This document shows positions 803 to 53,579 of a DNA stretch of 64,000 bases, one piece after another. The stretch is from positions 521 through 64,520 of the forward strand of contig JBMOJK010000005.1 of the NCBI GenBank assembly GCA_049315825.1, in the 5' to 3' direction. Numbering within the stretch: position 1 is the first letter of the stretch; every line of letters starts with the position of its first letter. The notes beneath the pieces are model-generated. The model made no database searches and was not told where the DNA came from. It saw only the letters and a list, made by a program, of their open reading frames with translations. This stretch comes from Patescibacteria group bacterium. Lineage in GTDB: Bacteria > Patescibacteriota > Gracilibacteria > BD1-5 > UBA2023. The position numbers and the translations under genes are program-made.

Positions 803-3121
803 TTACTGATTCTTCGGGATATCGTAGTAGTTGAGGAGGTATTTCGAGATACGTGAGAAGAGCGCAGAAGACGTGGTTTCTGAGTACTGTGCAGAACGTG
901 GGCGATCGATTTTGACGATCATGACGTATTTTGGATTGGATGCTGGGGCGAATCATCCGTAGGAAGTGATTGTATGTCCCGCAGAACCTTCTTCGTATTT
1001 TCCCTTTGAGGCGATCTGAGATGTACCCGTCTTACCTGCGGTATCATATCCTTCCACTCAACCCTTCTTCGCGAAACCAATACTCGCACCTTCTGTAAGC
1101 ATGGCGACGATCTTCTTGGAAGTTTCTTCCTTGATAACCCGACGCAGCGGGGTTGGTGCATTCTTCACGACACGACCGTCACCAAACGTGATCGAATCAA
1201 CAATGTATGGCTGAAAGTAGATTCCACCATTTGCAAGTGCAACATATGCGGCCGCCATCTGAAGTGGAGTTGCTGTGATCAATCCCTGTCCGAACGAAGC
1301 TGTAAAGAGGTCGGTTCGAGACCATTTTTCGTACGGAGGAAGCTTCCCATGTACCTCACCATCGAGCGTGATATTGGTCTTTGCGCCGAAGCCAAAGTCT
1401 ATGATATACTTATAGAAAAGCGCCTTTCCGATCTTTTGAACGATATCAATCATACCAACGTTACAACTCCAGTCGAGCGCATGAGCATACGTGTTGCGAC
1501 CGAGACACTCACTCGAAACATTCTTGATCTTGTATTTGTCGATTTCAACGAATCCCTTATCGAGATAGGTATCTGTTGGCTTGATATCCCCCGTATCGAG
1601 CCCTACTGATACAGTAATCGCCTTGAAAACCGATCCAGGCTCATACAGTGAACTTACGGCGTCATTCTGATAATTCGCAGGTCCGAAATTATCCTTGTAT
1701 TTGTATTTTGTAATCGCAATATTCCCCATTTCGCGTTCTGTTGCTGGACGGAGTTTGATCTTCTTTCCGAGATAATTAAGCTCCTCTCCATTTACCGAAT
1801 CTTCGACAAAGACCGGCATACCAAGAAGATCAAACGCAGGATTTGGATATCGCGCATAGCTTACCTTCTCGATCTGATACACATCACCGAAATTATTCGG
1901 ATCAAAATCTGGATAATTTACCATAGCGATCACCGCTCCAGTTTTAGGATCCAGAATCACAACAGATCCCTTGTTGGCCCGAAACTCATGAATAGATTCA
2001 GAAAGTAGTCTCGTGACTTCTTTCTGAATATTTCGGTCGATTGTAAGCTTGATATCTGCTCCGTTGACGATCTTCTTCTCGCCGAGATCATATCCACCGA
2101 TCGTGCGTCCTGCAGCATCCTTACGAGTTTGTCGCTCACCTTCCTGCCCCTGGAGATAGTCGTTGAAATAGGCCTCAATACCGTATCGACCTACATTTTC
2201 ATTGTCCACGAAGCCTGAAATCTGGCCTCACATATTTTTCTCAGGATAGAATCGCGTCGGATGAGGTTCGAGGATGAGAAATGGAGTCACGGTATCTATT
2301 TCTTTCATGAGTCCTTTACTCGTCGCAGATTTCTCATCGATCATACGCGCATCGATATAATCCTTCGTCCCGAGGCTCATGCGCCTGAGAATCTTAACAT
2401 ATCGCAGTGGGCGCTTTGCGATCTTGTTGTCCATATCAGCCTTGGAAATTCCGAGGATGGTTTGCAGTTTTGCAGAAACAAAATCCGGATCTTTGATCGA
2501 TGTAGGATCGACGTAAACATTCCCCGAGATGAGCGTTACACCCGAATACGCAAATGCTTCAACTTCGCGAAGTTCGTCAGTTGGAAGATTTTCCTTGATG
2601 AGCACAAAGTCGATGAATTCCTTGTCTATGCGGCGCTTGAATTCATCCCGCAGCATTGCATGAAGTATCTCAGAAGAATACGCAATATCGTCATTGCGGT
2701 TAAATTTTAGATATTCAAGTACATGCTCGATACATTTTTCGTTGGCAGTCCTTTCTCGTCCACAGAGCTCAAGATACACAGTATCAACGAGAAAAGGGAC
2801 GAGTTTTTCTTTCGATCCTGGAGCTTTCGGATCAACGGCAAGATCGGGAAGATCCGTCGACGTTGCAAATACTCCTACTGGATCATTGGAAGAGTAAATC
2901 GTTCCACGAGAAACGGGATTTTTAACCGTAATAGTCTGTTGTTTGTCCGCGAGTGACTTGTAGTATTCGTATTCGAATACAGTGTACTTAAAAGTTGTCC
3001 AGAGGATCAGGAGTCCAAATGCCACGCAAAAAGCCGTCACATATCCAATACGATCAATAGACCCGAGGAAACGCTGTAACCTGGGCAATAGACGATGAAA
3101 TAAGATTGAGAGATTATGCAT
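803..3121 (-). CDS. class B penicillin-binding protein (PBP2/FtsI-type transpeptidase), 772 aa
   Basis: Track ORFs 2228..3121 and 1058..2209 plus a 3-prime extension are one frame joined across TGA at 2228-2230, 1058-1060 and 953-955. Motifs SVFK (SxxK), SCN (SxN) and GKTGTSQ (KTG). N-terminal TM anchor. Stop TAA 803-805. Confidence 0.88.
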
Positions 3122-4025: not shown

Positions 4026-6521
4026 TTAACTTGGATTTACGACTGGCTTCGCCTTCTCTGCTTCCGCCCTCAGCCTCTTTTCTTCTTTCTTCTTTTCTTT
4101 GAATTCTTCAGCGGCTTTTTGGAATTTCTTCTCGTCGTCTACAACCTTCATATTGAATTCAAGAATTTTTCGCTCTACGAGATCAACGGGTTTTGAGTAT
4201 TTCTCGCGAGATACTTTGATAACCACATCAGCCTGCTGTTCTGGCACAGTGAGACGAGATCTGATCGGTCCGAGTGTAGTTGCAGAGAACACAGGCGATG
4301 GCATACCATCGATGAGTAGCTTGGTATAAATATCGTATTTTCGGAGATTCATGAGGTCATTCGGAAGAACCATTTCTTCGTCGAGAACTTCCGAGAGCTT
4401 TGTTGCGTCATGAAATCCAACCTGAAACGACACGAGTGTACCTACGTTTCCGAAGACTGCACCCTGAACCGTTTCAGTCATTTGCTCAATGTACTGGTTG
4501 GCCATTACAAGATTGAGCTTGTATTTTCGAGCTTCAGAGAGAATCGTCGCAAAAGAGTCTGTCGCGAAGTTCTGAAATTCATCTACATAGAGATAGAAAT
4601 CCCGACGTTCATGCTCTGGGATATCCGCGCGGCTCATCGCATCAATCTGGAACTTCGTGACCATCATCGCACCAAGGAGGGCTGATGAATCTTCTCCGAT
4701 CGTCCCCTTTGGAAGCTTGATGATAATAATCTTCCCATTGTCCATCGCCCAGCGGAGGGAGAATGGGTTCTTTGGCTGTCCCAAGATATTTCGCATGAGC
4801 GGACTTGAGAGGAACTGTCCTACCTTGTTGAGAATCGGAGCAGCAGCCTCGGTCATCTGTCGTGGTTCGAGAACTTCGTATTCACTCGTCCAGAAACGTG
4901 CGAGGCTCGGGTCTTTGATCTTGGCTACGAGCTTGAGACGATACGACTTCATTGTGAGCATGAGCGGGATCGACATGATCGTCGTATCTGGCATCTCAAG
5001 AAGTGTCATGACCGTATTGCGCATGATGTGTTCAAGTCGCGGCCCCCAACTATCTCCGAAGATTTTCTTAAAAATCGAAACAAGTCCTGATGCTACGATC
5101 GGGCGAAGCTCAGGCTTCACCTGCTCAAGCATATTGAACGCGATCGGATGACGATAGTCCGATGGATCGAAGACGATAACATCGTTCGTACGATTCTTTG
5201 GAATGCATGCGAGAATAGTCTCTGCAAGGTCTCCATGAGGATCAACAAGCCCAACTCCGCGACCCTTTTGGATATCGTCGTAGATCATGTTCTCGAGGAG
5301 GGTCGACTTACCCATACCCGTCTTACCGATGACATACACATGACGCCTGCGATCATTAGGGAGAATACCAAAAGGCACTTCGCTTCCACGGAAATTAGTT
5401 ACTCCAAGCGGAGTTGCGTCGTCGTGTTGATCAATTGTTGGAATATTGTGTGGTGGTTCGAACTTCTTAGTAACGACCCAGTTGATACCTGGAGTTTTTA
5501 CATAGATGGTCGGCATATGAACAATCCCAGCAAGTTCTGCAGTATTGAGGTACATTCCATGTCGATTGGTACGATTGCGCAATGCTTCGTGTGCGTCAAG
5601 CTTTGGCGGACTCGCCTTGAGACTATTTCCGTTTGGTCGAGCAAAGATATTGAGCGAGGTGGCAATCTCCTTGAGAGAAGACCGGGCCATGACTTCGTTT
5701 GAAGTATATGAGGCAATGCGAATATCGACTGCATATCCAAATCCTTTGATCTTTTCTTCGAGCTCAAGTTTCTTGGAGTCATCCTTCTCGTGTCCACCAC
5801 CATGGTGATCATCATGTCCTTCGTCATGCGAGTTCCCACGTATCACCAAAAGCGCAAGTTTTCCAAGCGTAATGAGTGGAATCGTGACCATCTTAAAGAG
5901 GATTCCATACGGGGAAAGCAGGATTTTTTTGATCCATTTTGCTCGCTTAGAAGCAAGAATCTCGATCACATGTTCGTCCTTCCATTCACTGTCTAGGATC
6001 GGTGAGAAATTGACCTGAAAGACAACTGGCTCATTCTTGTTTGCCTTCGAGAGCGCACTCGTGAGAGATGAAAGCGGATCAACCGTTTCTTTTTCACTGC
6101 GATCCTTGAACTCGGTATAGATCTTGATTGGACGAAGGTACTCCTTGGCGAGCGCAAGCTCACTGATGAACGGACTATGATTAGGCAAGTATTCACCTAC
6201 TTCAGTGAGTTCTACATTTGGAAAATGTGCGTAGATCTGGTTTCGTAGAATATTGACATGCGTACGTGGTGCCCGGAAGAAGAATCGAATTACCCCGGCA
6301 ATATTCGCGATTTCAAATCCATACGGCACAAAATGTGTTTGGTGCTTATGAAAAAATCCGTGTGTGTGTTCATCTACGGTATTATGCAGAATGTTGAGAA
6401 TTTGCTCCGCCACAAAAACCCCTTTTTCATTAAGGCGGTCTACGCGGACTTCGAGGAGCGTGGATTCTGACATTGTTGGGGACAAATGGTCAAGGGGAGG
6501 ATTATAGAGAGAAAAGCTCAC
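4026..6521 (-). CDS. TraD/VirD4-like coupling-protein-type P-loop ATPase (FtsK/HerA superfamily) with long N-terminal domain of unknown function
   Basis: 831-aa ORF. Walker A VIGKTGMGKST, Walker B FYLYVDEFQNF. One internal hydrophobic segment followed by the His/Asp-rich stretch HDEGHDDHHGGGHEKDD. No in-frame TGA. Start is GTG 6521 or ATG 6473. Confidence 0.7.
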   Translation of the reverse strand: MSFSLYNPPLDHLSPTMSESTLLEVRVDRLNEKGVFVAEQILNILHNTVDEHTHGFFHKHQTHFVPYGFEIANIAGVIRFFFRAPRTHVNILRNQIYAHFPNVELTEVGEYLPNHSPFISELALAKEYLRPIKIYTEFKDRSEKETVDPLSSLTSALSKANKNEPVVFQVNFSPILDSEWKDEHVIEILASKRAKWIKKILLSPYGILFKMVTIPLITLGKLALLVIRGNSHDEGHDDHHGGGHEKDDSKKLELEEKIKGFGYAVDIRIASYTSNEVMARSSLKEIATSLNIFARPNGNSLKASPPKLDAHEALRNRTNRHGMYLNTAELAGIVHMPTIYVKTPGINWVVTKKFEPPHNIPTIDQHDDATPLGVTNFRGSEVPFGILPNDRRRHVYVIGKTGMGKSTLLENMIYDDIQKGRGVGLVDPHGDLAETILACIPKNRTNDVIVFDPSDYRHPIAFNMLEQVKPELRPIVASGLVSIFKKIFGDSWGPRLEHIMRNTVMTLLEMPDTTIMSIPLMLTMKSYRLKLVAKIKDPSLARFWTSEYEVLEPRQMTEAAAPILNKVGQFLSSPLMRNILGQPKNPFSLRWAMDNGKIIIIKLPKGTIGEDSSALLGAMMVTKFQIDAMSRADIPEHERRDFYLYVDEFQNFATDSFATILSEARKYKLNLVMANQYIEQMTETVQGAVFGNVGTLVSFQVGFHDATKLSEVLDEEMVLPNDLMNLRKYDIYTKLLIDGMPSPVFSATTLGPIRSRLTVPEQQADVVIKVSREKYSKPVDLVERKILEFNMKVVDDEKKFQKAAEEFKEKKKEEKRLRAEAEKAKPVVNPS

Positions 6522-8734: not shown

Positions 8735-10276
8735 ATGTTGCAGAAAATTTCGCAAAAAATCATCGGCATCATCTCATTACTTTCAGTCATCTGCTGTGGG
8801 TTTGCAGGATGGGAGTTTCTCATGATGAAGGAACTTAATATCAATGGTCCGCTTTACAAAAAGATTGATTCAGTAAAAGCTGCCATGGCGGATACTCTTC
8901 CCCCACCATTATTCATCGTCGAATATTTTTCTACTTCTCTGCAACTCTGTGAGACAGTAGAAAAAACAGAGCAAGCTAAGCTGATCAACAGGCTCAAAGA
9001 ACTGAAAAATGCATATCTTGAACGTCACGAATACTGGAAAAAGCAGGCCTTGAATGCAGATATCGCAAACATCCTGCTCAAAAAAGCTCACGATCCTGCA
9101 TTGCGTACTTTTAGCATTGTAGAACGTGAACTAATACCATTGCTGGAAAGCCTGGACAGCGATGCGATTTCGAATGCTCGTAAGAACATAATTGCAGCCT
9201 ACGAACCACATCGACTGGCTATCAATGAAGTCGAACCTCTCCTCACCAAAGAAAGCAATACTCATGAAGCCGAGGCAAATGAACGCCAACGCTTCATAAG
9301 CATCCTATTGCCCCTGGTTTTCGCTGCAGTACTTATGGCAGGCCTCGTAATAGCGATGCGTATCAGTCGAGGAATTACTCACTCTATCAACTCTGCGGTA
9401 AAAGCAGTCGAGCGAGTCGCACAAAATAATCTCACCGGTACCATCGAAGCAGAATCCAAAGATGAAATCGGTGTGCTCATGAATGCACTCAAAGATATGC
9501 AAGCAAATCTCGCAAATGTTGTTCATGGAATACGAACGGCGACTGGGGCAATCACGGTAGCTTCTGGCGAAATTGCGACTGGAAACCTCGATCTTTCCAG
9601 TCGCACTGAGCAGCAAGCATCATCTTTACAAGAAACTGCTGCTAGCATGGAAACTCTCACACAGGGTATTCAGAGCAATGCAAACGAAGCAAAAATTGCT
9701 AGCGAACTCGCGAGCAATACCGCAACACTTGCTCAAGAAGGAGGAGAACTTATCAAAGATGTAACACAAGTAATGAGTGAGACAGTTACTCACTCAAATC
9801 GCATGAGCGATATTATTAGTACCATCGATGGTATCGCATTCCAGACCAACATCCTCGCACTCAATGCAGCAGTAGAAGCTGCGCGTGCAGGTGAACAAGG
9901 TCGTGGGTTCGCGGTAGTTGCAACAGAAGTTCGCAATCTTGCTCAGCGTTCAGCTGCAGCCGCGGCTGAGATAAAAAAGCTAATCGAAAACTCGATTAGA
10001 AATGTTAACAAAGGTGCACTTCTAGTTGATGTTGCCAGTCAAAAAATGCAGTCAATCGTAACTGAAACAAAGAAGGTAACACAAATTATAGCTGGACTCA
10101 GCACTAGTGCCCTCGAACAAAGTAGCGGAATTATAGATGTTAATTCTGCTATCAGTGAAATGGACGGTGTCACCCAACAAAACGCAGCGCTCGTCGAAGA
10201 AGCGGCAGCTGCAGCGGAATCACTCAATGACCAAGCAGAAAAAATGCTTGGTGCAGTGAGTGTATTTCGTATCTAA
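8735..10276 (+). CDS. methyl-accepting chemotaxis protein (Tsr/Tar-like signalling domain, HAMP, two TM segments)
   Basis: 513 aa. Contains [43 protein letters not shown] and ends ...VSVFRI, like enterobacterial Tsr minus the NWETF tail. No in-frame TGA. Stop TAA. Confidence 0.92.
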
Positions 10277-22472: not shown

Positions 22473-22606
22473 TGCAACAGGCTGAACTTTATGCGCACCA
22501 GACTGCTCTTGTATGCACTCAATACCGCGATAATCAAACGGTTGTGTATATTGAATTTCCATGCAAGAATTGTAGTGAATTTTCTGAGAAATTGAAGTCT
22601 GAAAAC

Positions 22607-22632
22607 AAAAAGAATCCTTTCGGAGTCTTTTT
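22607..22632 (-). terminator. intrinsic terminator ending the tRNA-Gly transcription unit
   Basis: aaaaagaatcc-tttc-ggagtcttttt (one mismatch in the stem). 25 of 26 nt identical to the terminator at 25237..25262. Confidence 0.6.
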
Positions 22633-22651
22633 GGGTTGAATGTGAATTGAT

Positions 22652-22750
22652 TGGAGCGGATAATGGGACTCGCCCTCCGGGCGCTTCGGTCGAAAGCCAA
22701 GTTGTTGGCTTTCTATTCCACAAGTGGAATACCTCAGTTCTCATCCCACT
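22652..22750 (-). ncRNA. tRNA-Gly 3-prime-end duplicate with a 77-nt structured insertion in place of the T-loop (function unknown)
   Basis: 23 nt (22650-22672) are identical to the 3-prime end of tRNA-Gly(GCC) at 22769-22791, including T-stem, acceptor 3-prime strand and CCA. The matching 5-prime T-stem strand gtggg is at 22746-22750. The insert has three local hairpins. A terminator follows. Confidence 0.35.
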
Positions 22751-22770
22751 ATTTCAGTGTAAGTACATAT

Positions 22771-22847
22771 TGGAGCGGATAATGGGACTCGAACCCACAA
22801 CGGCCGCCATGGCAAGGCGGTACTCTAGCCAATTGAGCTATATCCGC
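22771..22847 (-). tRNA. tRNA-Gly (anticodon GCC), CCA encoded
   Basis: Acceptor GCGGATA/TATCCGC, anticodon arm CCGCC-TTGCCAT-GGCGG, T arm GTGGG-TTCGAGT-CCCAT, discriminator U73. Confidence 0.9.
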
Positions 22848-22861
22848 GAAAAGAATGAACC

Positions 22862-22940
22862 TGGAGCGAGGGACCGGGTTCGAACCGGCACACCCGAGGG
22901 TTGAAGCCTCAGTACACTCACTCTTTTATGTTACCCTCGC
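22862..22940 (-). tRNA. tRNA-Gly (anticodon UCA), the UGA decoder, CCA encoded
   Basis: Acceptor GCGAGGG/CCCTCGC with G1-C72, C2-G71, G3-C70 and U73 (glycine identity set). Anticodon arm (C)TGAGG-CTTCAAC-CCTCG(G). T arm GCCGG-TTCGAAC-CCGGT. Short variable loop, so not tRNA-Sec. Atypical D arm. Confidence 0.8.
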
Positions 22941-22953
22941 AAAAGGTGGTTGC

Positions 22954-22981
22954 ATTGTAGAAAAGATGAGGTGAAAGTCAA
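22954..22981 (-). promoter_or_regulatory. sigma70-like promoter of the tRNA-Gly(UCA)/tRNA-Gly(GCC) unit
   Basis: Reverse strand: TTGACT, 16-nt spacer, TACAAT. The -10 element ends 13 nt before tRNA position 1. Confidence 0.55.
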
Positions 22982-25275: not shown

Positions 25276-28200
25276 TTATTGTGCAATCTTTGCGAGATTG
25301 TATTGATCGAGGTACTGAGAGAGCAGTGGTGGTGGATTCTTGAATGCTCGAGTCGAGTAGTTGATCGTAACACCCGTTGAGAGTGCAGTTGATGCACTCG
25401 TTGCTCGGATGTATGTTCGATCATTTACAAGATCAGCGATATTTGCATTCACGTTTCCATCTACAGCGAGAGGATTGGCAGTTTGACCTGCTCCAACCAT
25501 CTTACCGCTGAGCACGATGTAAACACCGGCAATATCTGTAACAGATGAGGTAACGATAATCGCCTTTCCATCTGCAGAAGCCTGCTTTACAACAAATGCC
25601 CAACTTGCCCCCGGATCAGCATAGGTGATATTTCCACGAATCTCAAGCGTTCCCTGATCGATCACGACCGTCTTCACCCCTGAGAGTGAAATATCTGCAT
25701 TGATCACGATCTTTCCCTTTGGAAGTGTGTAGAGATCAGGACTGTCTCCTACCTTTGAGAGACTGAGTTCAAAGTCAGACTGTGAGTTAATCGTTACCAC
25801 TCGATCTGCTGCAGTAGAAGCAGAAGATGCAAATTTCGAGATAGATGAGTCTTGTGAATCATTACGTCCGATTTCCTTTCCAGCCTGTTCAGCAGTGTTG
25901 GATGAAAGTGAGAATGCTGCATCCTTCGCAGAAGAAGTAACTGTGAAGTTTCCCTTCTTAAGACTATCGAGGAAGCTTTCTGTAATCGTATTAACACTAT
26001 AACCTACTCGACTTCCAACGTAAGCATTTCCTCCTGCTGTATTGCTGACAGCTGATCGGGCAACACGTACTGGGAGTGGTTCGATGAGATAGTTCAGTCC
26101 AACGAAGAAGTTATTCATGCGAACGGCTGAGCCAACAGAAGTTGGTGGATTTACATCTGTGCTTGCCTGTCCTGCAAGGATAGATGATGTATTACCAAGG
26201 AATTTTGTTCCGTTAAAAGCACCATTCTGATCTGCAGTAAAGAGTCGATAGTCACCACAGTTAATCACGGGTGCGTTTTCTCCAAGTTGCATCGTTCCGC
26301 GTCCAATACACGCATCATTGATGCTTCGATAGAGTGACTGCCCAGTGATGAGACCTCCTGGACTATTATTGACGAATCCAGCTGTAAGACCGTTAAGGGC
26401 GATTGGATATTCTGCTCGGATAGAGAATACGTCTCCTGGATTGAATGGATTTACATCGTTTCCGACGATAGCTCGCATATTGGATACAGGAGCTCCGTTG
26501 TAGAGAAGATCGATACCGTTGCCTCCTGGGTTCGTCCATCCAAGTGGACAGTCGAGCGCTCCGCGTGCACATGCACCTGGATTGGTCCATGCAGCTCGAC
26601 AGTTGTTACAGAATCCATTGTTGATTGGCATTCCTCCGTTACTTCCGGCATCACAGGTTTCACCTGCATCAATTCGACCATTTCCACAGAGACCTCCACC
26701 TCCACCTCCTCCTCCGCCACCGCTTCCTCCACCCCCAGGTGGAAGTGGTGCTCCAGTTGAACTAATGATCACTGGGCGCTGACAGTTCGTCGAGTCGGTT
26801 GAATTTTCTACGTAACATGCAATGTTGTATGTTCCTGACTTATTATAGAAACAACTTCCTGCGTTTGCTCCAATCGCTGCCTGACCATTTCCACACTCTA
26901 CACGATAGCTTGGGTTTGGCCCCGCAGTTCCTGCATTCGCGCTACAAACAAATGATACGCGATATCCATTGTCCACTTGGATGTTAGACTGAATTTCAAG
27001 CGATTTACACGCCCCTGGACCTCCACCCCCACCGTTTGAAACAGTTACTGGCACTTGGCAGGCTGCTGGAGTTGGATTAGCTCCGTTTACTACACACGAT
27101 GCTACAAAGTTCCCTGGAGTTGTATATGTACAGTTTCCTGTAGCCGCATTGATCGTTTGACCATTTCCACAACTGATCGCAAATGTTGGATTTGCACCCG
27201 CAGCAGTTCCTGCGATACAAGACATCGCAGAAGTGAGATTTCCTGAAGTAGACGTATTAGGAGTTGCAGTGAGTCGTCCACAGATTCCGGTTCCACCCGC
27301 TGCAAATGTAGCAGTACACACACCACCAACAGCACTTCCATTACATCCCCAAGTATAGGTTACTATACCACCAACTGGAGCACTTTCAGTGAAACCATTC
27401 ACAGTCTGACCTGCTGGACAGAGATTTGGAGTTGTGGCAGTAATTGCAGTGGTAAGTGGGAGGGTAATTGTACCGATCACACAAGCGGGTGCAGATGGAG
27501 TGTATGATGCTGCACAGAGACCTCCAACCTGAGAGCCATTACAGCTCCATGTATAGTTGGTTGTTGCACCAACAGTTGTAGCGGTAAATCCACCAACTGT
27601 TTGACCAGCCGGACAAAGACCAACAGAGGCCGAGGTAAGCGGAGCAGTCTGTGGTCCAGTGGTTGGACCAGGTGTACACGCAAGATTTGCTGGATTGTAG
27701 GTTGCACTACATGTCCCACCAACTGCTGATCCGTTACAGCTCCAAGTATAATTAATACCAGAACCAACATTTACTGCTGTAAAATCACCAACTGTTTGAC
27801 CCGATGGACAAAGTCCGAAAGATGCAGAGGTAAGCGGAGCTGTCGGAGGAAGTGAGATAGGACCTCGCTGACACGCTGGACCAGTTGCTGAATACGTCGC
27901 AGTACATTCACCACCGATCGCACTATTGCCACACGCCCAGAAATAATTCGTTGTATTTCCTGAGATCGTTGATCCAAATCCGACTACTGGCACACCTGCC
28001 TTACAGAGTCCAGGACTTCCTGATGTAATCGGACCTGTTAGCGGAAGTGCAATATTTCCTCGTTCACAGGCGAGTGGTGGTTCAGTGACAACTGTACATT
28101 TTGCGCTACAAGTCGAACCTGGCTTTCCGTTCTGAGCACCTAAGTCACATACTTCGTTATATTTTGAATCGACTACGCCGTCACCACACCAAGTGATTTC

Positions 28201-28641
28201 ATACGATTTACATTCACTATGACTCTCAACAATTGAGCTCTGAACGCCGTTTACTATTGGTGAATACTCAACAACATAGCGAACCGTAAGATTATCCTTT
28301 GCTCGAACAGGAGGGGAGAAAATCACTGGATAACTCGAATCTGTTTCAGCAATAATCCCTGCTTCACCCGACTGTACTACTCCATTTCGACTAAGAATCC
28401 ATGGAGTCCAGGCATAATTAATAGGTGCAGACGAACCGTTATAGTCATATTTCTCATTAAATTCCGGAAAGAAATTGATAACCTGAATCGGGGTACCTGC
28501 TTCATTGGCAAGAGTATCGTTAAAACGATAGCTGTGCCCCACTCGAAGCGTGCCTTCAAATGTCTGATCACAGGTTGCTGCAGATGCAAACGCTGGAAAC
28601 AAAACAAGGAGGAGTCCTGTTAGAATAACCGAATATTTCAT
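25276..28641 (-). CDS. secreted 1121-aa Cys-rich repeat protein (putative surface/adhesion protein)
   Basis: Signal peptide MKYSVILTGLLLVLFPAFASA. Two CGDG/CGNG...C..C Cys-rich motifs. Four repeats of about 65 aa (see 27301..28071). Poly-Gly tract. 400-aa C-terminal domain. Zero in-frame TGA. Stop TAA. Confidence 0.8.
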   Translation of the reverse strand: MKYSVILTGLLLVLFPAFASAATCDQTFEGTLRVGHSYRFNDTLANEAGTPIQVINFFPEFNEKYDYNGSSAPINYAWTPWILSRNGVVQSGEAGIIAETDSSYPVIFSPPVRAKDNLTVRYVVEYSPIVNGVQSSIVESHSECKSYEITWCGDGVVDSKYNEVCDLGAQNGKPGSTCSAKCTVVTEPPLACERGNIALPLTGPITSGSPGLCKAGVPVVGFGSTISGNTTNYFWACGNSAIGGECTATYSATGPACQRGPISLPPTAPLTSASFGLCPSGQTVGDFTAVNVGSGINYTWSCNGSAVGGTCSATYNPANLACTPGPTTGPQTAPLTSASVGLCPAGQTVGGFTATTVGATTNYTWSCNGSQVGGLCAASYTPSAPACVIGTITLPLTTAITATTPNLCPAGQTVNGFTESAPVGGIVTYTWGCNGSAVGGVCTATFAAGGTGICGRLTATPNTSTSGNLTSAMSCIAGTAAGANPTFAISCGNGQTINAATGNCTYTTPGNFVASCVVNGANPTPAACQVPVTVSNGGGGGPGACKSLEIQSNIQVDNGYRVSFVCSANAGTAGPNPSYRVECGNGQAAIGANAGSCFYNKSGTYNIACYVENSTDSTNCQRPVIISSTGAPLPPGGGGSGGGGGGGGGGLCGNGRIDAGETCDAGSNGGMPINNGFCNNCRAAWTNPGACARGALDCPLGWTNPGGNGIDLLYNGAPVSNMRAIVGNDVNPFNPGDVFSIRAEYPIALNGLTAGFVNNSPGGLITGQSLYRSINDACIGRGTMQLGENAPVINCGDYRLFTADQNGAFNGTKFLGNTSSILAGQASTDVNPPTSVGSAVRMNNFFVGLNYLIEPLPVRVARSAVSNTAGGNAYVGSRVGYSVNTITESFLDSLKKGNFTVTSSAKDAAFSLSSNTAEQAGKEIGRNDSQDSSISKFASSASTAADRVVTINSQSDFELSLSKVGDSPDLYTLPKGKIVINADISLSGVKTVVIDQGTLEIRGNITYADPGASWAFVVKQASADGKAIIVTSSVTDIAGVYIVLSGKMVGAGQTANPLAVDGNVNANIADLVNDRTYIRATSASTALSTGVTINYSTRAFKNPPPLLSQYLDQYNLAKIAQ
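27301..28071 (-). repeat. four tandem ~65-aa four-cysteine modules inside the 1121-aa protein
   Basis: Protein residues 191-447: AC.(R)G...LP.T.P(I/L)TS.S.GLC.AG..V.GF......G..TNY.W.C(N)GS..GG.C.A.Y repeated four times. Confidence 0.75.
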
Positions 28642-28905: not shown

Positions 28906-31900
28906 CTACTTCTTTGGAAATGTACCTGGTCCACCTGTATTCTGACCACCTGGCGTCTTCGTTGTTCCACCCTCTGTGCCGTCATTGACTGTTTCTTCTC
29001 TTTCGCCTGGAGTAGTGGTGATTTTTGATTTCTCAATCGTCTTGCTGATAGCCTGCTCTACTACTTCTCTCTTATAGTTGATGCCGAATGTTGCCTCGCT
29101 CGTGCTTGATTCGTTTGTATAGACATCACCATTGTATTCTTCTGCAATGCTGAATGCTGGCTTTGCAATGACTGGTGCAGGCTCTACATGTTTTCCTTTG
29201 ATCTTCATCACTGGATATCCGAGCGCATAGACGTCATTGATACACACTGCACCCTGAACCATGGCTCGCGCAGTAACAAAGAGGGCCTTTGGACCATTTT
29301 CAACGATTCCACTCAGTCGTGTTGGGATAGTATTTGAGAGGAGATATGCCTCATATTCTGCAGAATCAAATCCTGCTACATCCTTTGGAAGAAGTGCATT
29401 TGTTGCGACACGATTCTTCTCAAATTCTCCTGAATTTTTAGCAATCTTGAGAATATAGCTCTGAAGAACTCGGTTTTCTGTAGCTGAAACCTTGTTTACT
29501 ACATCGAGATCTCCACTGAAGTACGCAAGTCCACGAACGGTAGTCTTACCACTCGTATCAAGCTGTGCAAGCGTGATAGATCCTGAGATATTTCGGAAAG
29601 GACCATTTCCATCACGGGTGAATGCATCTGCAAGACTTCCACGAACGAGCGTTTCCTTGCCGTTCTTGTGCGCCATGATCGCCTTATCGTGCTCTTCGTA
29701 CGCCTTGAGGAATTCTTTCTGATCCGCCTTGTCTACTCCGAGAATTCGATTGAATGCCTTCTTATTTCGATTGTGTTCTGCAAGCGCCTCAGCATAAGAA
29801 ATATTCTTCTTTGCACGGATATTGCGGCCTCCGAGAGTAGCGAGGAGGATGTTTTCGAGAATCTCATCCTTATCGCCTGGGTTGCACTTATCAAGAGATG
29901 CCTTGAGGAAAGCAAGGGATTTTCCACCTGCAGCGATCTGCTTTTCGGCTGCACCATATTCACGCTTTGCGATCGAATTGAGTGCAGAGATGAGGTGAGA
30001 ATTCGTGCGAGAAAGTGAGAAAATCTTGTTTCGAGCCTGCTGTGAAAGCACTCCATCCTTATAGATATTCTCAAATGTTCCTGCCTTATCTTCTGGTCCT
30101 ACCTCCTGAGTGGTTTCAGTTGCAGACTTGATCTGTGGAACACCCTTTACTTCCTTGATCACGATACCATACATCGCAATACCTTCACCCGACATGAATG
30201 ACTTACTCTCAACACGCAGTGAGTTTCCTGGAGTAGGGATTACCTGAGCAATACCATTTACTTCTGTGAGCTTTACGCTATCGAGGACGATGAGGCCTGA
30301 TTTTACGTCAGCCGCTGATCGCAGAGTGATGCTTTCGTTCTTTGGATCATATCCGGTGACGAACTTCTTGATCACCTCAGTTTTACTAAGATCAGATGTT
30401 TCTGACTTGAGTACCTTGCGCTCTGTCGCATCGACATCTTTATTTTTGGAAGCTGACTGATTGACGTGCTGGAAATTCACGCCGAGGAAGATTGCATGGA
30501 TCATCGGGATGAGCGTGATGTTCATACCAGCAACATGGAATCCCTTAAGGCTATCATGCACTGCTGCTGCATATACCTGCTCAAATGCAGCAGTATCACG
30601 AAGGATGATAAGCTTCTTTTCTCGGATGTCAGGGTTGGCATCTACGACCGCCTTTGTTTCAGCAATCATCTTGCGCATTACAGAAACTTCTACGAGAAGA
30701 GCTTCGTCGACTGGCTTAGCAGCATTTGCCTGTTTTTCGATCTCAGCGAGCCGAGCACTGATCTTTGTATCATCGAGGCGTCCATCTTCAGTAAGTCTGA
30801 TGAGTGGCCACATTTCCTTGATCGCAACACGCTGCTCCTTGATTGTATCCTTTACGTTGTTTGGATTGACATTAAATCCGATAGAAGGAATTGCTCCGTT
30901 TCCGGTATTTCCAGTTACTGCGAGTTCTCCACCAATAGTGAAATTCCCCTTGAGATTGCTTGACTGAAGTGTTGCATTGTTATTACTTGTTGTAACATCA
31001 GCGCGTCCTGAAATGGTGATTGGGAAAATCACTCCATCCGCACTTCCAACCATAGAGGCTCCTACTCCTGCCTCTGCTGAGTAACCCTTTCCTTCTACCT
31101 GCATCGCTCCAACATTGAATCCGATGACGATATTTGGAGTAATCTTTGTTTCGCGTTTCTTTTCATTTTCCTCGCTCGTAAGCTCTCTCTTTGTAGTGGT
31201 ACCTTTCTGATCTCCAGTGAGTGCAGGAGTTAAAGGATTTATTGGAGCATTCTTTGTGAGAGTTGTTTGTTGTGTAGCACCAACCTCAGACTTGTTGCCA
31301 GCTGCAACCACACTCGACTGATTCTTTGTAATTACAACATCCTTCACATATTGTGTGAAAGTATGTGTATTTACATTGGCATTGCTGCGTGGATCTGCAA
31401 TTATTGTTGTAGGATACGGCTGATTGATTTTTGTATCAGCAGTGGTTGTATAGGTTTTTGTATTGATCGTTGTATCTGTCACCTTAGTCGATGCTCCAAC
31501 TGACGAGAAGAATCGTGGATTGATCGAGATCTGAAATGCAGTTCGAGCAAGAAGCTCATCCATCGTTTTCGCATCAAGATCGGCAAATCCTGCCTCCTTA
31601 AGCTGACTGCTTACGCGATTTGGAAGTCCTTCCTTCACAAGTGCAGACTTGATAAATTCGATCGTGTTTGCCTGTTCTTTCGCACGTTCGTTCTTGTAGT
31701 CACGAGCCTTCTGGGTATCGAGTTTTGCAGCAACTTCTGGAGTTGTCTGAGCGGCTTCCGTGAGAAACGATCGCTGGAATTCCTTCACGAGGAGTGCAAA
31801 CTTCTTTGGATCTGCGAGCTTTGCCGCAATATCCTTAGCATCACCTCCTGTTACCTTCGAAATAACTGCAACGAGATCTGCCTGTGAATTTACGCGCTTG

Positions 31901-32841
31901 CTGAGATTTGCATACATCGCAAGTTCTGTCGCGATATGGAGCTGTGCGTCCTTTCCACCTCCAAAAAGCTTCTGAAATGCAGCAAATACAAATGTATCAC
32001 TGTATTTCTTTGTGTTCATTGAAGTAAGCATTCCGTCGTGACTAAAGTCTACGAGCTGTGCAAGCTGATTACGCGCTCTGTCGGCTTCGGAAAGGTTTTT
32101 AATCTTATCAGCATTTGTTTCAACGCGAACTGATCGCTGAATATTTGTCCCCTCCTTGAGGAGAGTATTTACTTCGGGCGTCTTGATCGCATCACGAAGT
32201 TCGAGGATGGCAGAAAGTTCACTACGGCTGTAGAAATTATCGTTTCCAAATACATATCGTGCACGTGTGATATATCCGTGCTTTTCGAGCGCTGCCTTGA
32301 AGTCTGCGGACTCGTCCGTTCCGTCGTCAGTTCGTACCGAACGAACATTCGTGTTGTTCTTGTTGAAGTTCTTAAAATCCTCTGGATGCTTAAGAAGAAT
32401 ATCGAGTGCATCGTTGAAATTGAGGCTTTCTTCGAATTTTCCACGAAGCCCCTTTACCACACTGTGTACCGTCGAGAGTGTGTTGAGACCCTTCTTTGAA
32501 TCCTCATAAATCGCGATTACGCTCTGCGCAAATTCACGTGCATTCTTTGAGGTACCCATGTGCTTCTCGAAGATCGCAACAACCTGTTCAGTTGGGACGC
32601 CTGACTTGAGAGCCGACATTGCCTGACTTACTAGGATTGAGAAATTTGCCTGATGCTCGAGTCGCTCGATGAGATTGTTTTTCTGTTCAGTTGGAAGCTT
32701 GGAGTTTGCAACTGTTGAAAGGAGCTCTTTTGTCGCATCTGGATTGCTCGCAGGTGCAGTAGAAGGAGCTGGAGTGGCTTGCTTTTCAGCATTCTGTTCA
32801 AGGAAAAATCGAACATGACCGTAAGAATATGGGGACTTCAT
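28906..32841 (-). CDS. orphan 1311-aa protein, no recognisable domain or signal peptide
   Basis: Single uninterrupted ORF with no in-frame TGA. Stop TAG. Thr/Asn/Gly-rich beta-like central segment. Helical N- and C-terminal regions. Confidence 0.78.
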   Translation of the reverse strand: MKSPYSYGHVRFFLEQNAEKQATPAPSTAPASNPDATKELLSTVANSKLPTEQKNNLIERLEHQANFSILVSQAMSALKSGVPTEQVVAIFEKHMGTSKNAREFAQSVIAIYEDSKKGLNTLSTVHSVVKGLRGKFEESLNFNDALDILLKHPEDFKNFNKNNTNVRSVRTDDGTDESADFKAALEKHGYITRARYVFGNDNFYSRSELSAILELRDAIKTPEVNTLLKEGTNIQRSVRVETNADKIKNLSEADRARNQLAQLVDFSHDGMLTSMNTKKYSDTFVFAAFQKLFGGGKDAQLHIATELAMYANLSKRVNSQADLVAVISKVTGGDAKDIAAKLADPKKFALLVKEFQRSFLTEAAQTTPEVAAKLDTQKARDYKNERAKEQANTIEFIKSALVKEGLPNRVSSQLKEAGFADLDAKTMDELLARTAFQISINPRFFSSVGASTKVTDTTINTKTYTTTADTKINQPYPTTIIADPRSNANVNTHTFTQYVKDVVITKNQSSVVAAGNKSEVGATQQTTLTKNAPINPLTPALTGDQKGTTTKRELTSEENEKKRETKITPNIVIGFNVGAMQVEGKGYSAEAGVGASMVGSADGVIFPITISGRADVTTSNNNATLQSSNLKGNFTIGGELAVTGNTGNGAIPSIGFNVNPNNVKDTIKEQRVAIKEMWPLIRLTEDGRLDDTKISARLAEIEKQANAAKPVDEALLVEVSVMRKMIAETKAVVDANPDIREKKLIILRDTAAFEQVYAAAVHDSLKGFHVAGMNITLIPMIHAIFLGVNFQHVNQSASKNKDVDATERKVLKSETSDLSKTEVIKKFVTGYDPKNESITLRSAADVKSGLIVLDSVKLTEVNGIAQVIPTPGNSLRVESKSFMSGEGIAMYGIVIKEVKGVPQIKSATETTQEVGPEDKAGTFENIYKDGVLSQQARNKIFSLSRTNSHLISALNSIAKREYGAAEKQIAAGGKSLAFLKASLDKCNPGDKDEILENILLATLGGRNIRAKKNISYAEALAEHNRNKKAFNRILGVDKADQKEFLKAYEEHDKAIMAHKNGKETLVRGSLADAFTRDGNGPFRNISGSITLAQLDTSGKTTVRGLAYFSGDLDVVNKVSATENRVLQSYILKIAKNSGEFEKNRVATNALLPKDVAGFDSAEYEAYLLSNTIPTRLSGIVENGPKALFVTARAMVQGAVCINDVYALGYPVMKIKGKHVEPAPVIAKPAFSIAEEYNGDVYTNESSTSEATFGINYKREVVEQAISKTIEKSKITTTPGEREETVNDGTEGGTTKTPGGQNTGGPGTFPKK

Positions 32842-33968: not shown

Positions 33969-34514
33969 ATGCTTACGAATTTAACATCAGATCTCAAGAA
34001 AGCCGAAGAACACCTTCACAACGAATTTGCGAAGCTCCAGGTTGGACGCGCGAATCCTGCCATCGTGGAAGGGATTATAATCAGTGCTTACGGCTCAGCT
34101 CAGCCACTCAAGAATGTAGCAAGTGTGAGCATCATGGATGCACAGACTCTCAGTATCATGCCATGGGATAAGTCGCTCATCAAAGATATCGACCGCGGTA
34201 TTACCGAGGCTAATATTGGACTCAATCCACAAAACAACGGAGAATCTATCATGATCAAGATCCCAACTCTTACCGGAGAGCGCCGCCGTGATCTCGTAAA
34301 GATCGCGAAGAAGCTCGCCGAAGATGGGAAAATCGCCGTTCGAAACATCCGAGCAGACTATGCCAAGAAGATTAAATCAGCAGAAACGGCCAAAGAAATC
34401 AGCGAAGACATGGCAAAGAGTTACGAAGCTGATCTCCAGAAGGCTGTAGATGCCGAAGGAAAGAAGATCGATGCCGCCTTCGATCACAAGGAAGCAGATA
34501 TCATGAAGATCTAA
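33969..34514 (+). CDS. frr: ribosome recycling factor
   Basis: 181 aa from ATG 33969. Contains ...FAKLQVGRANPAIVEGI..., IPTLTGERRRDLVK, AVRNIRAD. Confidence 0.92.
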   Translation: MLTNLTSDLKKAEEHLHNEFAKLQVGRANPAIVEGIIISAYGSAQPLKNVASVSIMDAQTLSIMPWDKSLIKDIDRGITEANIGLNPQNNGESIMIKIPTLTGERRRDLVKIAKKLAEDGKIAVRNIRADYAKKIKSAETAKEISEDMAKSYEADLQKAVDAEGKKIDAAFDHKEADIMKI

Positions 34515-37495
34515 TGCGAAAGCTCTCCGAAAACACGATCTACTCGAGGTCGGGAAACATTTTTTCCCGGTCTCTTTTTCTCTTGGAAAGCCTCACGGCT
34601 GGTCGGACGCTTTTTGTGTTCGATAGCTTCGAAGCAGAAAAGAAATCCAAACTCGTGCTCGAGCACTTTCTTGCAACTCCGATCCGACAGATCAGAAGCG
34701 AATGAGACCTTCTCGGATTTCTCACAGAAAAATCCGGGCTTTTTACGACGACTACCGGAGCATTCGACGAAAGTGTGCGCTTTGGATACAAGCGAACCAA
34801 GCTTGGACTCTCACTCGTTCGTGGCAAAGAGTACAAAACCGATGATCTCGTGAGTCGGCTCCTCGAGATCGGATACAGCCACAGTCCACATCTGAGTCGC
34901 GATTTCACCTACAAACTCGACGGAGGTGAACTGCATATCAGACGCGCAGAAACGGTCGTGATCGCGTCGTTCTTCGGAGATGAACTCGATGAGATCATCC
35001 TGCGAACACTCGCAGGTGAACCGAAGGGCAAGGTCGAAACTTATACCCTCTTCTCTGGAGCAAGCGAAGAACTTCCCGAGCAAGCAACGAGTTTGGATGC
35101 ATCACTGTTGAGCGAGCTCCAGGATGTACTCGTGATCATGTTCGATCTCGAATTCTTCGAGTACGCTTCGGATCTACGAGCCGGACTTGCGAGATATATC
35201 GCATTCGAAAGCACGAAACAGAGCACTTCACTCGAGACAGATCCGTTTGTGATCGACTCACTCGAGGCGCTCGAAGACCATTTGCGTGCCTACGGAGCAA
35301 AGACCCGGTTCTACACCCGTCACCCGAAGTCGATCGAACAATTTCTCTCGTACAATAGTCTGCCGAACGCAGGGATCGAAGTCGTGCCACGACTCGCGCT
35401 TGAGAGTTTCCATACCGAGCATGAATTCGCGATCACGGACGATATCCTCTCTCGACTCTTCGCAGTCAAACGCACTAAACGCAGCGCCGCAAAATCCCTC
35501 GATCTCCTCCTCTCACTCGCACCCAACGACTATGTGGTGCACTTCGAGCATGGGATCGGAGTATTTCGAGAGCTCATCGAGAAAGAGATGAACGGTGTGA
35601 AACGTGAATACGTCGCGATCGAATATGCCGATCAGGATCGACTCTATGTCCCCATCACCGAACTCTATCGCCTCACCAAATACCTCGGCGAGGAAAACCC
35701 AAAACTCCACCGTCTCTGAGGAAATATCTGGAAAACTGCTCTCGCGAACACCGAAGACGAGATCGCGAAGACCGCAGCAGAACTCCTCGATGTGTATGCC
35801 CGTCGTAAGGTAGCTCAGGGATTTGCATTTCCGAAGTTTCGCAAGGAAGAAGCGGCTTTTCGAGCGCTTTTCCAATACACGCATACTCCTGATCAGATCA
35901 GCTCGATCGAGGAGATTTTCACGGATATGGAAAGCAGCGAACCGATGGATCGACTCGTATCTGGAGACGTAGGATTTGGGAAAACAGAAGTCGCGATGAA
36001 CGCAGCATACAAGGCGGTGCTTGCTGGAAAACAGGTCGCTGTAATCTCACCTCTCGTGGTGCTTGCCTACGAGCATACTGAGTCTTTCACGAAGCGTTTC
36101 GAAGGGATGAATATTCGCATCGGGACACTTTCGCGTATGACAACTGAGTCCACGGCAAAGCGCATCCTCAAGGAACTCGCAGACGGGACACTCGATATCG
36201 TGATCGGGACACACCGACTCCTCTCGGAAGACATCACTTTCAAGCGACTTGGACTGCTCATCGTCGACGAAGAACACAAGTTCGGTGTGATTGACAAAGA
36301 GCGCATCACCGGGATGAAATCTCACCTCGACATCCTCTCGCTCTCAGCGACCCCGATCCCACGAAGTCTCAATATGGCGCTTTCTGGGCTTCGTAAAATC
36401 TCGATGATCACCACTCCTCCTCCGCAGAAGAAACCTATTCGCACACTGGTTGCGAAATGGAGTGAAGAAGTGATCCGAGATGCGATCGCGACAGAACTCG
36501 GTCGTGACGGACAGGTCATCTTCGTCCACAATCGCATCGCCTCCCTCGAAGGGGTCGCCAAGGAACTCATGCGCATCGCGGGCAAGAAACTGCGCATCAT
36601 CATCACCCACGGACAGATGAATCCTGTGGAGCTCGAGGATCGGATCATGGATTTCAAAGAGTGAAAATACGACGTCCTGCTCACGACCACTGTCATCGAA
36701 AACGGAGTGAATTTCCTACGAGCCAATACTATCTTGCTCGACAATGCGGACGAATTCGGACTCGCACAGCTGCATCAGCTTCGTGGTCGTGTGGGACGTA
36801 AGAATATGGACGCACACTGTTTCCTCCTCTATCGCAAGGATCACCTGCCAGAAGACGCCAAAAAGCGTCTTCTCGCCATCGTAGAGCATTCACATCTGGG
36901 TGCAGGTTTCGAGATCGCGATGCGCGACCTCGAGATCCGCGGGGCTGGTGAGATCCTCGGGATCAAGCAGTCTGGTCGAGCAAAAGAGACGGGTATTTCT
37001 CTCTATCTCAAGCTCCTCGAGAACAAGATCGAAGAACTCAAGACCGGGATCAAACCCCTCTCGATCGATACTAAGATCGAGCTCGACGTCGATACATTTC
37101 TCATGGAAGACCTCTTCGCGAGTGAGCACGACAAGATCTCGTTCTATCGCTCGCTCGAATCTGTGACAGACATCGAAGACCTCGAAAGCGCGGAGGAGAG
37201 TTTCGCTCGCACACACGAGGATACGTTTGAAAATGTGACCAATCTCTTCTTACTCCTGAAGGCGCGTATCTATCTCAGTCGCTACGGTGTGATCGGCGTG
37301 AAAAAAGTCCTCAAGGACTACGTGTTTGACTTCCGAGCAGACACGACGACACAGATGATGCGAGATTTCCTCGATGTAGACGATCGTGGAGTTTTCCTCG
37401 TGCAATCACTTGCCCGTGTACGGGTTGCGAAGAGTGAATATGAGAATGATCTCGATTTTTTGAGGAAGACGGTTGGGTTATTGGAAAGAAAATGA
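34514..37495 (+). CDS. mfd: transcription-repair coupling factor Mfd
   Basis: Four track ORFs in one frame across TGA 34703, 35717 and 36662. CarD/RID region HFEHGIGVF. Helicase motifs GDVGFGKTEVA, DEEHKFG, SATPIPR, QLRGRVGR. Start overlaps the frr stop (TAATG). Confidence 0.92.
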
Positions 37496-37502
37496 TCTTA
37501 AA

Positions 37503-52442: not shown

Positions 52443-53579
52443 TTATTTTTTGAGTGAGAGGATCTTCGTCACAAACACAATTACGAGCACGAGCGCCACA
52501 AAGAGGATGATTTTCCCAACTTTATCCAGGAAGGCTGCCGCCATACCAAACAAAAATGCAAGCGACCATACAAATGCTCGAATCGATCCTTCTGACATAC
52601 CAATCGCAAGCAGACGATAGTGGAGATGGTGGATGCGATCGCCCTTTAGAGGATTTTTTCCAGAAAGAATACGGGCAAAGATGACATAAAATGCATCAAT
52701 GAGGTAGACTCCGAGCGCCGTAGCAACCGTCGCTACCTTCCCACCCACAAGCAGGGCAAGCGATGCGATAATAAAGCTTGCAAACATTGTTCCACTGTCG
52801 CCCAAAAGTATTCGAGGGCGCATTCCCAAAAACCATCCGATGAGCGCTGCTGGCAAACACACTGCCAAGATCGAGAATACAAAAATAGAATTCTGATGCA
52901 GCTCAGGCGTCTGATCAAGATAGTAGAATCGTACTGTAAGAATTCCGATTACAATGAACGCAATAGACGTAAGTCCTGAGGTCAGACCCGGAACTCCGTC
53001 GCTCCAGTTTACACTATTGAACACAACAACATACCATACGATGGTAAAGAGAAGTGGAACAATATAGACTTCGAGTCCGAACGCAGTGAACGAAAGCCAA
53101 TCAAGATGCACGATCCCACCGAAAATATTGGAAACATAGCTGATCTTGATACTCGTAAGTCCAACGATAAGTCCGATGAGAATCTGAAGTGCAAGGCGGA
53201 TTTTGGGAGAAACTGCAAAGGGCGTCTCTCGTGGCTTGATCATCTCACCTGTTTTGGTGGATTTATCTTTCTCGCTGTATTTGTATATCGTATCAAGATC
53301 ATCGAGGAAGCTCACAATCGTCACTATCGCACCAAGCACGAGGAGGATAGCAAGCTTTTCCGACATCCCAAGAAACGCGATGGAACAAATGAGAAAATTG
53401 AGATACAACACTACTCCAACCCCGTGTGGCACTGGCTTACGATCGTGACCGTACGGTGCTGGATTATCCAAGAGTCCCCATTTTGGGAAATAGTGCATCA
53501 CCCCCCAAAATAGTGCATACGATACCACAGAGGATGCTGCAAAAATAAGAACGAAACGGATAATAAGCTCGATTGTCAT
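52443..53579 (-). CDS. MraY/WecA-family polyprenyl-phosphate N-acetylhexosamine-1-phosphate transferase
   Basis: 378 aa, about 10 TM segments. Motifs DDLD and NSVNWSDGVPGL typical of glycosyltransferase family 4. Confidence 0.82.
   Translation of the reverse strand: MTIELIIRFVLIFAASSVVSYALFWGVMHYFPKWGLLDNPAPYGHDRKPVPHGVGVVLYLNFLICSIAFLGMSEKLAILLVLGAIVTIVSFLDDLDTIYKYSEKDKSTKTGEMIKPRETPFAVSPKIRLALQILIGLIVGLTSIKISYVSNIFGGIVHLDWLSFTAFGLEVYIVPLLFTIVWYVVVFNSVNWSDGVPGLTSGLTSIAFIVIGILTVRFYYLDQTPELHQNSIFVFSILAVCLPAALIGWFLGMRPRILLGDSGTMFASFIIASLALLVGGKVATVATALGVYLIDAFYVIFARILSGKNPLKGDRIHHLHYRLLAIGMSEGSIRAFVWSLAFLFGMAAAFLDKVGKIILFVALVLVIVFVTKILSLKK

Follow-up and report, generated by a model that had tools for sequence, protein, structure and literature searches.

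In published accounts, translation table 25 is defined by the reading of UGA as glycine by a tRNA-Gly(UCA), together with the loss of release factor 2 (RF2), and the code is credited to Rinke et al. 2013 for the Gracilibacteria/BD1-5 and to Campbell et al. 2013 for the SR1/Absconditabacteria (both cited in PMC8629427 and PMC4695839). The lineage using it appears as Gracilibacteria/BD1-5 or as Absconditabacteria, and as class JAEDAM01 in the GTDB (PMC13092985; gTranslate preprint). Divergent D and anticodon arms have been noted for the SR1 tRNA (PMC4695839); we found no mention of the structure of the tRNA in Hanke et al. 2014.

Related solutions exist elsewhere. The Mycoplasmatales and some insect endosymbionts use a tRNA-Trp(UCA) whose anticodon also reads UGA after the loss of RF2 (code 4), and bacterial tRNA-Sec (selC) combines a UCA anticodon with a 6-bp anticodon stem. 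In the laboratory, Murgola reportedly obtained opal suppressors from the E. coli glyT gene by changing its anticodon to UCA; these mutants are said to insert glycine at UGA in competition with RF2, and to read UGG too.

The gene analyzed here lies on the minus strand of a 64-kb window, by which we mean the whole stretch of DNA that was analyzed (C27:521-64520 of an assembly of 1.06 Mb, 44.6% GC and 33 contigs, 91.6% complete). We are highly confident that it encodes the code-25 tRNA-Gly(UCA) of a Gracilibacteria genome of BD1-5 type. As in the described code-25 tRNAs, the UCA anticodon is combined with G1-C72, C2-G71, G3-C70 and U73 and with divergent D and anticodon arms, and as in the described code-25 systems RF2 is lost, RF1 is kept and UGA occurs at glycine positions. 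There is no difference of substance, and the window holds a further species' copy. The code-4 tRNA, in contrast, has tryptophan identity (G73, A1-U72), and a U34 that reads both UGA and UGG is harmless in code 4, whereas here it would put glycine at tryptophan codons. Bacterial tRNA-Sec differs in its 8/5 acceptor/T arrangement (13 bp), its long variable arm, its G73 and its SelA/SelB/SECIS system, none of which was seen here. Unlike the glyT suppressors, the gene described here is fixed and conserved in a lineage lacking RF2, and its derived features are C38, one additional nucleotide ahead of the anticodon stem and the absence of GG from the D loop.

Results

The UCA tRNA gene is real and conserved

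ARAGORN called three tRNA genes in the window, one of them with the anticodon tca at 22862..22940 on the minus strand, and the same gene scored 44.9 bits against Rfam RF00005 (gathering score 29; E 2.5e-6 in the 64-kb window). It is 79 nt long with its encoded CCA. The acceptor stem GCGAGGG/CCCUCGC, which gives G1-C72, C2-G71 and G3-C70, is followed by the discriminator U73 and CCA; U8 and A9 lie between it and the D stem ACAU/GUGU, which encloses the 10-nt loop AAAAGAGUGA without GG. A single extra A precedes an anticodon stem of 6 bp (CUGAGG/CCUCGG) with the loop CUUCAAC, the variable loop has 4 nt, and the T arm is normal (GCCGG UUCGAAC CCGGU). The initial annotation, made from the letters of the window, had already proposed this anticodon loop, the four acceptor-end marks and an atypical D arm lacking GG, and all of them can be read in the sequence, the anticodon being called by ARAGORN and the D arm recurring in the folds. 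The sixth anticodon-stem pair, offered there as a possibility, is given both by the minimum-free-energy fold, which is exactly this cloverleaf (7/5 acceptor/T, 6-bp anticodon stem), and by RNAalifold, which independently predicted the same cloverleaf from 30 relatives.

In the alignment of 30 copies, 99.8% of the cells were paired, and six pairs had changed on both sides: 4-69 in the acceptor stem, 12-23 in the D stem, one in the anticodon stem and three in the T stem. None of 500 shuffles reached the covariation score, and sliding the partners destroyed the signal. Three features are invariant in this alignment, namely the unusual D loop, the added base and the sixth C-G pair; covariation is therefore silent on that pair, which never varies, and the conservation of all three shows that they are not sequencing noise. 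These results confirm that the window holds a real tRNA gene at this place.

UGA is used as a glycine codon

With TGA read through, positions 34514-37501 encode a full Mfd (CarD_TRCF, DEAD, Helicase_C and TRCF in order) and positions 803-3121 a full PBP2; if TGA is taken as a stop, both genes, with four and three TGA codons respectively, fall into pieces. Counted without overlap and from 100 aa upward, ORFs cover 69% of the genome if TGA ends translation and 90% if it is sense, and the median ORF grows from 183 to 297 aa.

The meaning of the codon was examined in three tests, none of which uses annotation. When the mfd genes of 30 relatives were aligned from raw DNA, TGA turned up in one or more sequences at 135 columns; 35 of these are conserved, with at least 70% of the other sequences showing one residue. 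That residue is Gly in 32, Asp, Ala and Leu in one each, and Trp or Cys in none of the 35. With column weighting, Gly accounts for one third of the TGA partners, compared with 4.9% in the background.

In the second test, codons of the window were paired with those of the syntenic 80 kb of a same-genus genome (G001; OY970170.1). Only non-overlapping longest frames were counted, because at 80% DNA identity antisense and shifted ORFs also align well and contaminate unfiltered counts; the wrong frames that remain dilute the glycine signal and do not create it. Of the 59 differing pairs with TGA in this genome, 31 have GGN and 2 have TGG on the other side; in the reverse direction, with TGA in the same-genus genome, the counts are 37 and 2 of 65. 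The TGA-GGN exchanges include GGT and GGC, that is, two base changes. Exchanges of TGA with TGT or TGC in true frames amounted to 0 and 1 cases.

Finally, in-frame TGA codons were located on solved structures from standard-code bacteria, where 8 of 9 sites aligned with Gly: 4/4 in MnmA, among them the G that precedes the SGGVDS loop, 3/3 in MiaA, and one of two in Mfd, whose residue 402 faces Gly and whose residue 717 faces Gln in E. coli. This Gln and the three discordant columns among the 35 conserved ones are the points against a uniform glycine reading. At the level of sequence comparison, the three tests together identify TGA as a glycine codon here and exclude tryptophan (code 4) and cysteine, in line with the earlier proposal that the UCA tRNA underlies the recoding seen in the coding sequences.

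In the window ORFs with Pfam support, TGA accounts for about 5-15% of the glycine codons; the genome-wide share of 13.7% is inflated by wrong-frame ORFs. Two giant ORFs, 25276-28641 and 28906-32841 (both minus strand; 1121 and 1311 aa), contain 233 GGN codons and no TGA, where about 20 would be expected at the rate of roughly one in ten glycines of the Pfam-supported genes. Other long conserved ORFs are likewise free of TGA (4026-6521, 8735-10276, 52443-53579, 54402-55616 and 55858-57657), so some genes avoid the recoded codon.

RF2 is not found and tryptophan codons are conserved

UGA is read through, at glycine positions, and the UCA tRNA is the only one of the genome's 39 tRNAs able to read it; the set also includes tRNA-Trp(CCA), tRNA-Gly(UCC) and tRNA-Gly(GCC). 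The sole release-factor locus passes the prfA cut-off (461 vs 423 bits). RF2 (prfB) was not found in the 91.6% complete genome, where its best match, at the prfA locus, reached 283 bits against a cut-off of 370. In the class as a whole, 112 of 151 genomes have a prfB above the cut-off, but none of the 15 from this order does. With RF2 missing, nothing would terminate at UGA. The class sample mixes RF2-bearing standard-code families with at least three RF2-less, TGA-rich groups, namely this order and the families f14 and f27.

Genes for two tRNA-modifying enzymes, each with in-frame TGA, are present: MnmA (C17:21959-22993) and MiaA (C24:14124-14951). MnmE and MnmG were not found in the genome at its 91.6% completeness, so U34 may be thiolated without an xm5 group, which bears on how UGA could be told from UGG.

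These observations matter for the alternative that survives best, in which the tRNA carries glycine but decodes ambiguously, some UGA terminating or being read by another tRNA and UGG being misread too. U34 can wobble with G, and the problem of UGG misreading is named in PMC8629427; MnmA is present while MnmE and MnmG were not found, and two giant genes avoid TGA entirely. Yet no RF2 was found, and TGG is strongly conserved, facing TGG in 81 pairs between this genome and the same-genus one and TGA in only 2. The tRNA-Trp(CCA) also has a normal 5-bp anticodon stem, as is expected for code-25 organisms (PMC13092985). We therefore regard ambiguous decoding as very improbable. With a clean glycine reading, the candidates for avoiding UGG are the invariant C32/C38, the extended anticodon stem and a possible thiolation of U34. 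Among the UNN-reading tRNAs of the genome, C38 is peculiar to the UCA tRNA; all the others have A36-A37-A38, the motif that MiaA needs.

The tRNA has a glycine-identity body

Ranking the genome's tRNAs by global identity was uninformative, as the long class II tRNAs came first, and we therefore used the identity positions and a ranking by covariance model. Among the 39 tRNAs, G1-C2-G3 together with U73 occurs only in the UCA tRNA and in the two tRNA-Gly (UCC and GCC), which bears out the earlier view of a glycine-identity body under a UCA anticodon, sharing its marks (GCG and U73) with the neighboring tRNA-Gly(GCC). G1:C72, C2:G71, G3:C70 and U73, the four marks of the classification rule of Shulgina and Eddy 2021 (PMC8629427), are invariant in the UCA tRNA of 30 relatives. 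A covariance model built from the UCA tRNAs ranks tRNA-Gly(UCC) as the next-best match in this genome and as the best match in other orders.

The initial annotation also spoke of the classical bacterial GlyRS identity set. The marks are there, but the enzyme is of another type: the GlyRS of this genome is the dimeric alpha2 form (508 bits summed), and glyQ was not found in the genome. The classical set was defined on the alpha2beta2 enzyme of E. coli and thus applies here only by analogy, although U73 and the first acceptor pairs matter also for the alpha2 GlyRS of Thermus. In the enzymes studied so far C36 is a major GlyRS identity element, and the UCA tRNA has A36 in its place, so that charging requires a tolerant GlyRS. 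Glycylation of the UCA tRNA, and with it the insertion of glycine at UGA, are thus steps that we infer from the identity marks and the codon data.

The same marks raise a rival that had not been considered in the initial annotation, whose glycine reading otherwise held: a tRNA-Cys-like opal decoder, charged by CysRS, with UGA meaning cysteine fully or in part. U73 together with C35-A36, which the GCA anticodon of tRNA-Cys shares, could also attract CysRS, and CysRS forms that charge a tRNA-Cys(UCA) have been reported (PMC5389517). The tRNA-Cys of this genome, however, has the acceptor GGCGUCU and not GCG; it and tRNA-Thr share U73 with the UCA tRNA but have other acceptor stems. The codon data reject the cysteine reading: exchange of TGA with cysteine codons is nearly nil, no conserved Mfd column is Cys, and the MnmA and MiaA sites are Gly in 7 of 7 cases. 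We give this rival a slimmer chance still than ambiguous decoding.

A tRNA-Trp(UCA), with the genome on code 4 as in the Mycoplasmatales, is hardly credible. Code 4 shares the UCA anticodon and the loss of RF2, and a small genome fits its pattern, but the UCA tRNA has G1-C72 and U73, against A1-U72 and G73 in the genome's own tRNA-Trp(CCA). The initial annotation had suggested that finding a tRNA-Trp(CCA) would exclude code 4; the gene exists, but by itself it does not do so. What refutes code 4 is the codon-substitution evidence, with TGG opposite TGA in no more than 2 of the 59 and 2 of the 65 differing pairs and no Trp at the conserved columns. As to a selenocysteine tRNA, ARAGORN, run as the initial annotation advised, prints 'tRNA-SeC' from the anticodon alone, and the 6-bp anticodon stem would fit, but the chance is practically nil, this reading being refuted by structure and codon usage: the 7-bp acceptor, 5-bp T stem, U73 instead of G73 and 4-nt variable loop (whose shortness had led the initial annotation to the same verdict) speak against it, SelA was not found in the genome, and SECIS-dependent insertion could not account for TGA in ordinary genes at a rate of about one per ten glycine codons.

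The UCA tRNA lies between a promoter-like site and a second glycine tRNA

A sigma-70-like promoter site, TTGACT-16 nt-TACAAT, was found by consensus scan at 22954..22981 (minus strand; 10/12 matches), where the initial annotation had placed a promoter. Between the end of the -10 hexamer of this putative promoter and the UCA tRNA lie 13 nt, and both hexamers are kept in the same-genus genome while the flanks differ. Downstream, a 14-nt spacer (22848..22861) in which the consensus scan found no promoter-like site separates the UCA tRNA from a canonical tRNA-Gly(GCC) with U73 and encoded CCA (22771..22847, minus strand; ARAGORN, Rfam 63.2 bits). Co-transcription of the two is plausible. The adjacency of the two genes, which the initial annotation pointed out, occurs in only 7 of 33 related loci; in 15 of the 33 a tRNA-Arg(GCG) lies nearby on the same strand.

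Behind tRNA-Gly(GCC) follows a structured trailer of about 120 nt (22650..22770, minus strand), which ends in an exact 23-nt copy of the tRNA-Gly(GCC) 3' end (22650-22672 = 22769-22791, a direct repeat). The trailer is probably part of the same transcript as the tRNAs, but stands outside the UGA decoder. Farther on, at 22602..22630 (minus strand), a terminator-like hairpin, AGACUCC GAAA GGAUUCU followed by a U run, was recognized by eye and by comparison with the same-genus genome; our scan criteria called no terminator downstream of the tRNAs. The equivalent hairpin of the same-genus genome, at the same place, is a perfect 7-bp AGACUCU GGAA AGAGUCU with Us, and since it differs on both sides of the stem yet still pairs, the stem has been kept through changes.

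The trailer is one of a family. A structured unit of about 100-150 nt stands behind at least six tRNA genes of this genome (Gly-GCC, Ser-CGA, Ser-GCU, Thr-GGU, Leu-CAG and His-GUG), the loci outside the window being C1:76539-76800, C1:113380-113559, C4:28740-28858, C4:124111-124260 and C31:3150-3333. Each unit begins with the reverse complement of the T loop and stem of its own tRNA, contains two or three hairpins with compensatory changes (for example AAAGCCAACAACUUGGCUUU vs GAGUCCAACAACUUGGACUC) and closes with 16-23 nt that repeat the 3' end of its own tRNA with CCA; behind tRNA-His this copy is degenerate. At Ser-CGA and Ser-GCU the first unit is followed by the start of another, and behind Thr-GGU the trailer begins anew; in the same-genus genome the trailer has a shorter form. 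The layout resembles the tyrT/RtT repeats of E. coli, but the Rfam RtT model scores far below its threshold of 45 bits (13.8 for the copy in the window and 17.6).

The 79-nt form was found in one order only

The same 79-nt tRNA was present in all 41 genomes searched in the order, which span three families and 31 genera, at 81-100% identity; the copy of the same-genus genome is 100% identical to that of the window. The same architecture at about 91% identity is found in the complete genome of Ca. Gracilibacteria HOT-871 (CP017714.1) and in GN02-872. An anticodon-arm pattern for the core of the tRNA, run on one genome per species, matched at least 118 public species records, nearly all of them Candidatus Gracilibacteria, some of the titles reading 'Peribacteria' or 'Patescibacteria group'. 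Three matches outside this group, one each on a 'Pirellulales', an 'Acutalibacteraceae' and an IMG/VR contig, were set aside as chance because there is no tRNA at any of them.

In the class-level sample, the 79-nt form with its 6-bp anticodon stem was seen only in this order, and the covariance model found no match to it in the other recoded families of the class. A pattern for Gly-type UCA tRNAs (Y32, C38 and encoded CCA) gave none in those families either, but it was too strict, missing even a known copy in another family of the class, and its blank result carries no weight. That copy, in genome G053, is a 77-nt tRNA(UCA) at L211:4485-4561, on a 7.3-kb contig (C1). It has G1-C2-G3, U73 and the loop AUUCAAC, with C38 again, but its anticodon stem has the normal 5 bp and its D loop contains GG. 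G053 keeps RF2 (464 bits), and its Mfd has no TGA in 627 aligned residues; the contig has no in-frame TGA either, and glnA and the 3' part of ileS adjoin the tRNA. This tRNA is a singleton among the 151 class genomes sampled. Possible explanations are an opal suppressor, a stage midway through recoding, a cassette with a private code or a mis-binned contig.

Discussion

The route by which UGA would come to mean glycine in this organism can be sketched as follows. Transcription would start at the tRNA's own sigma-70-like promoter, probably taking in tRNA-Gly(GCC) and the structured trailer, and the transcript probably runs on to the hairpin and U run. The UCA tRNA would be matured with its encoded CCA and charged by the single alpha2 GlyRS, which by the known identity rules would recognize U73, G1-C72, C2-G71, G3-C70 and C35. 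On the ribosome, the UCA anticodon would pair with UGA codons, while RF1 would serve UAA and UAG.

The oddities of the tRNA may or may not contribute to this. That the extra base with the sixth C-G pair, the D loop without G18-G19 and C38 are specific adaptations and not neutral relics is a tentative idea to which we give less than even chances. If it were true, these features would let a U34 tRNA read UGA but not UGG, and would let it avoid CysRS. No discussion of such an adaptive role was found in the literature that could be searched.

A tRNA that assigns UGA to glycine is the hallmark of code 25; the initial annotation read the gene correctly, and the biology of this locus adds nothing beyond what has been known since 2013. 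In practice, the genome must be translated with table 25, which affects all the other genes called in the window. The non-canonical and strictly conserved features of the tRNA also suggest mutations with which the avoidance of UGG could be probed, a modest question.
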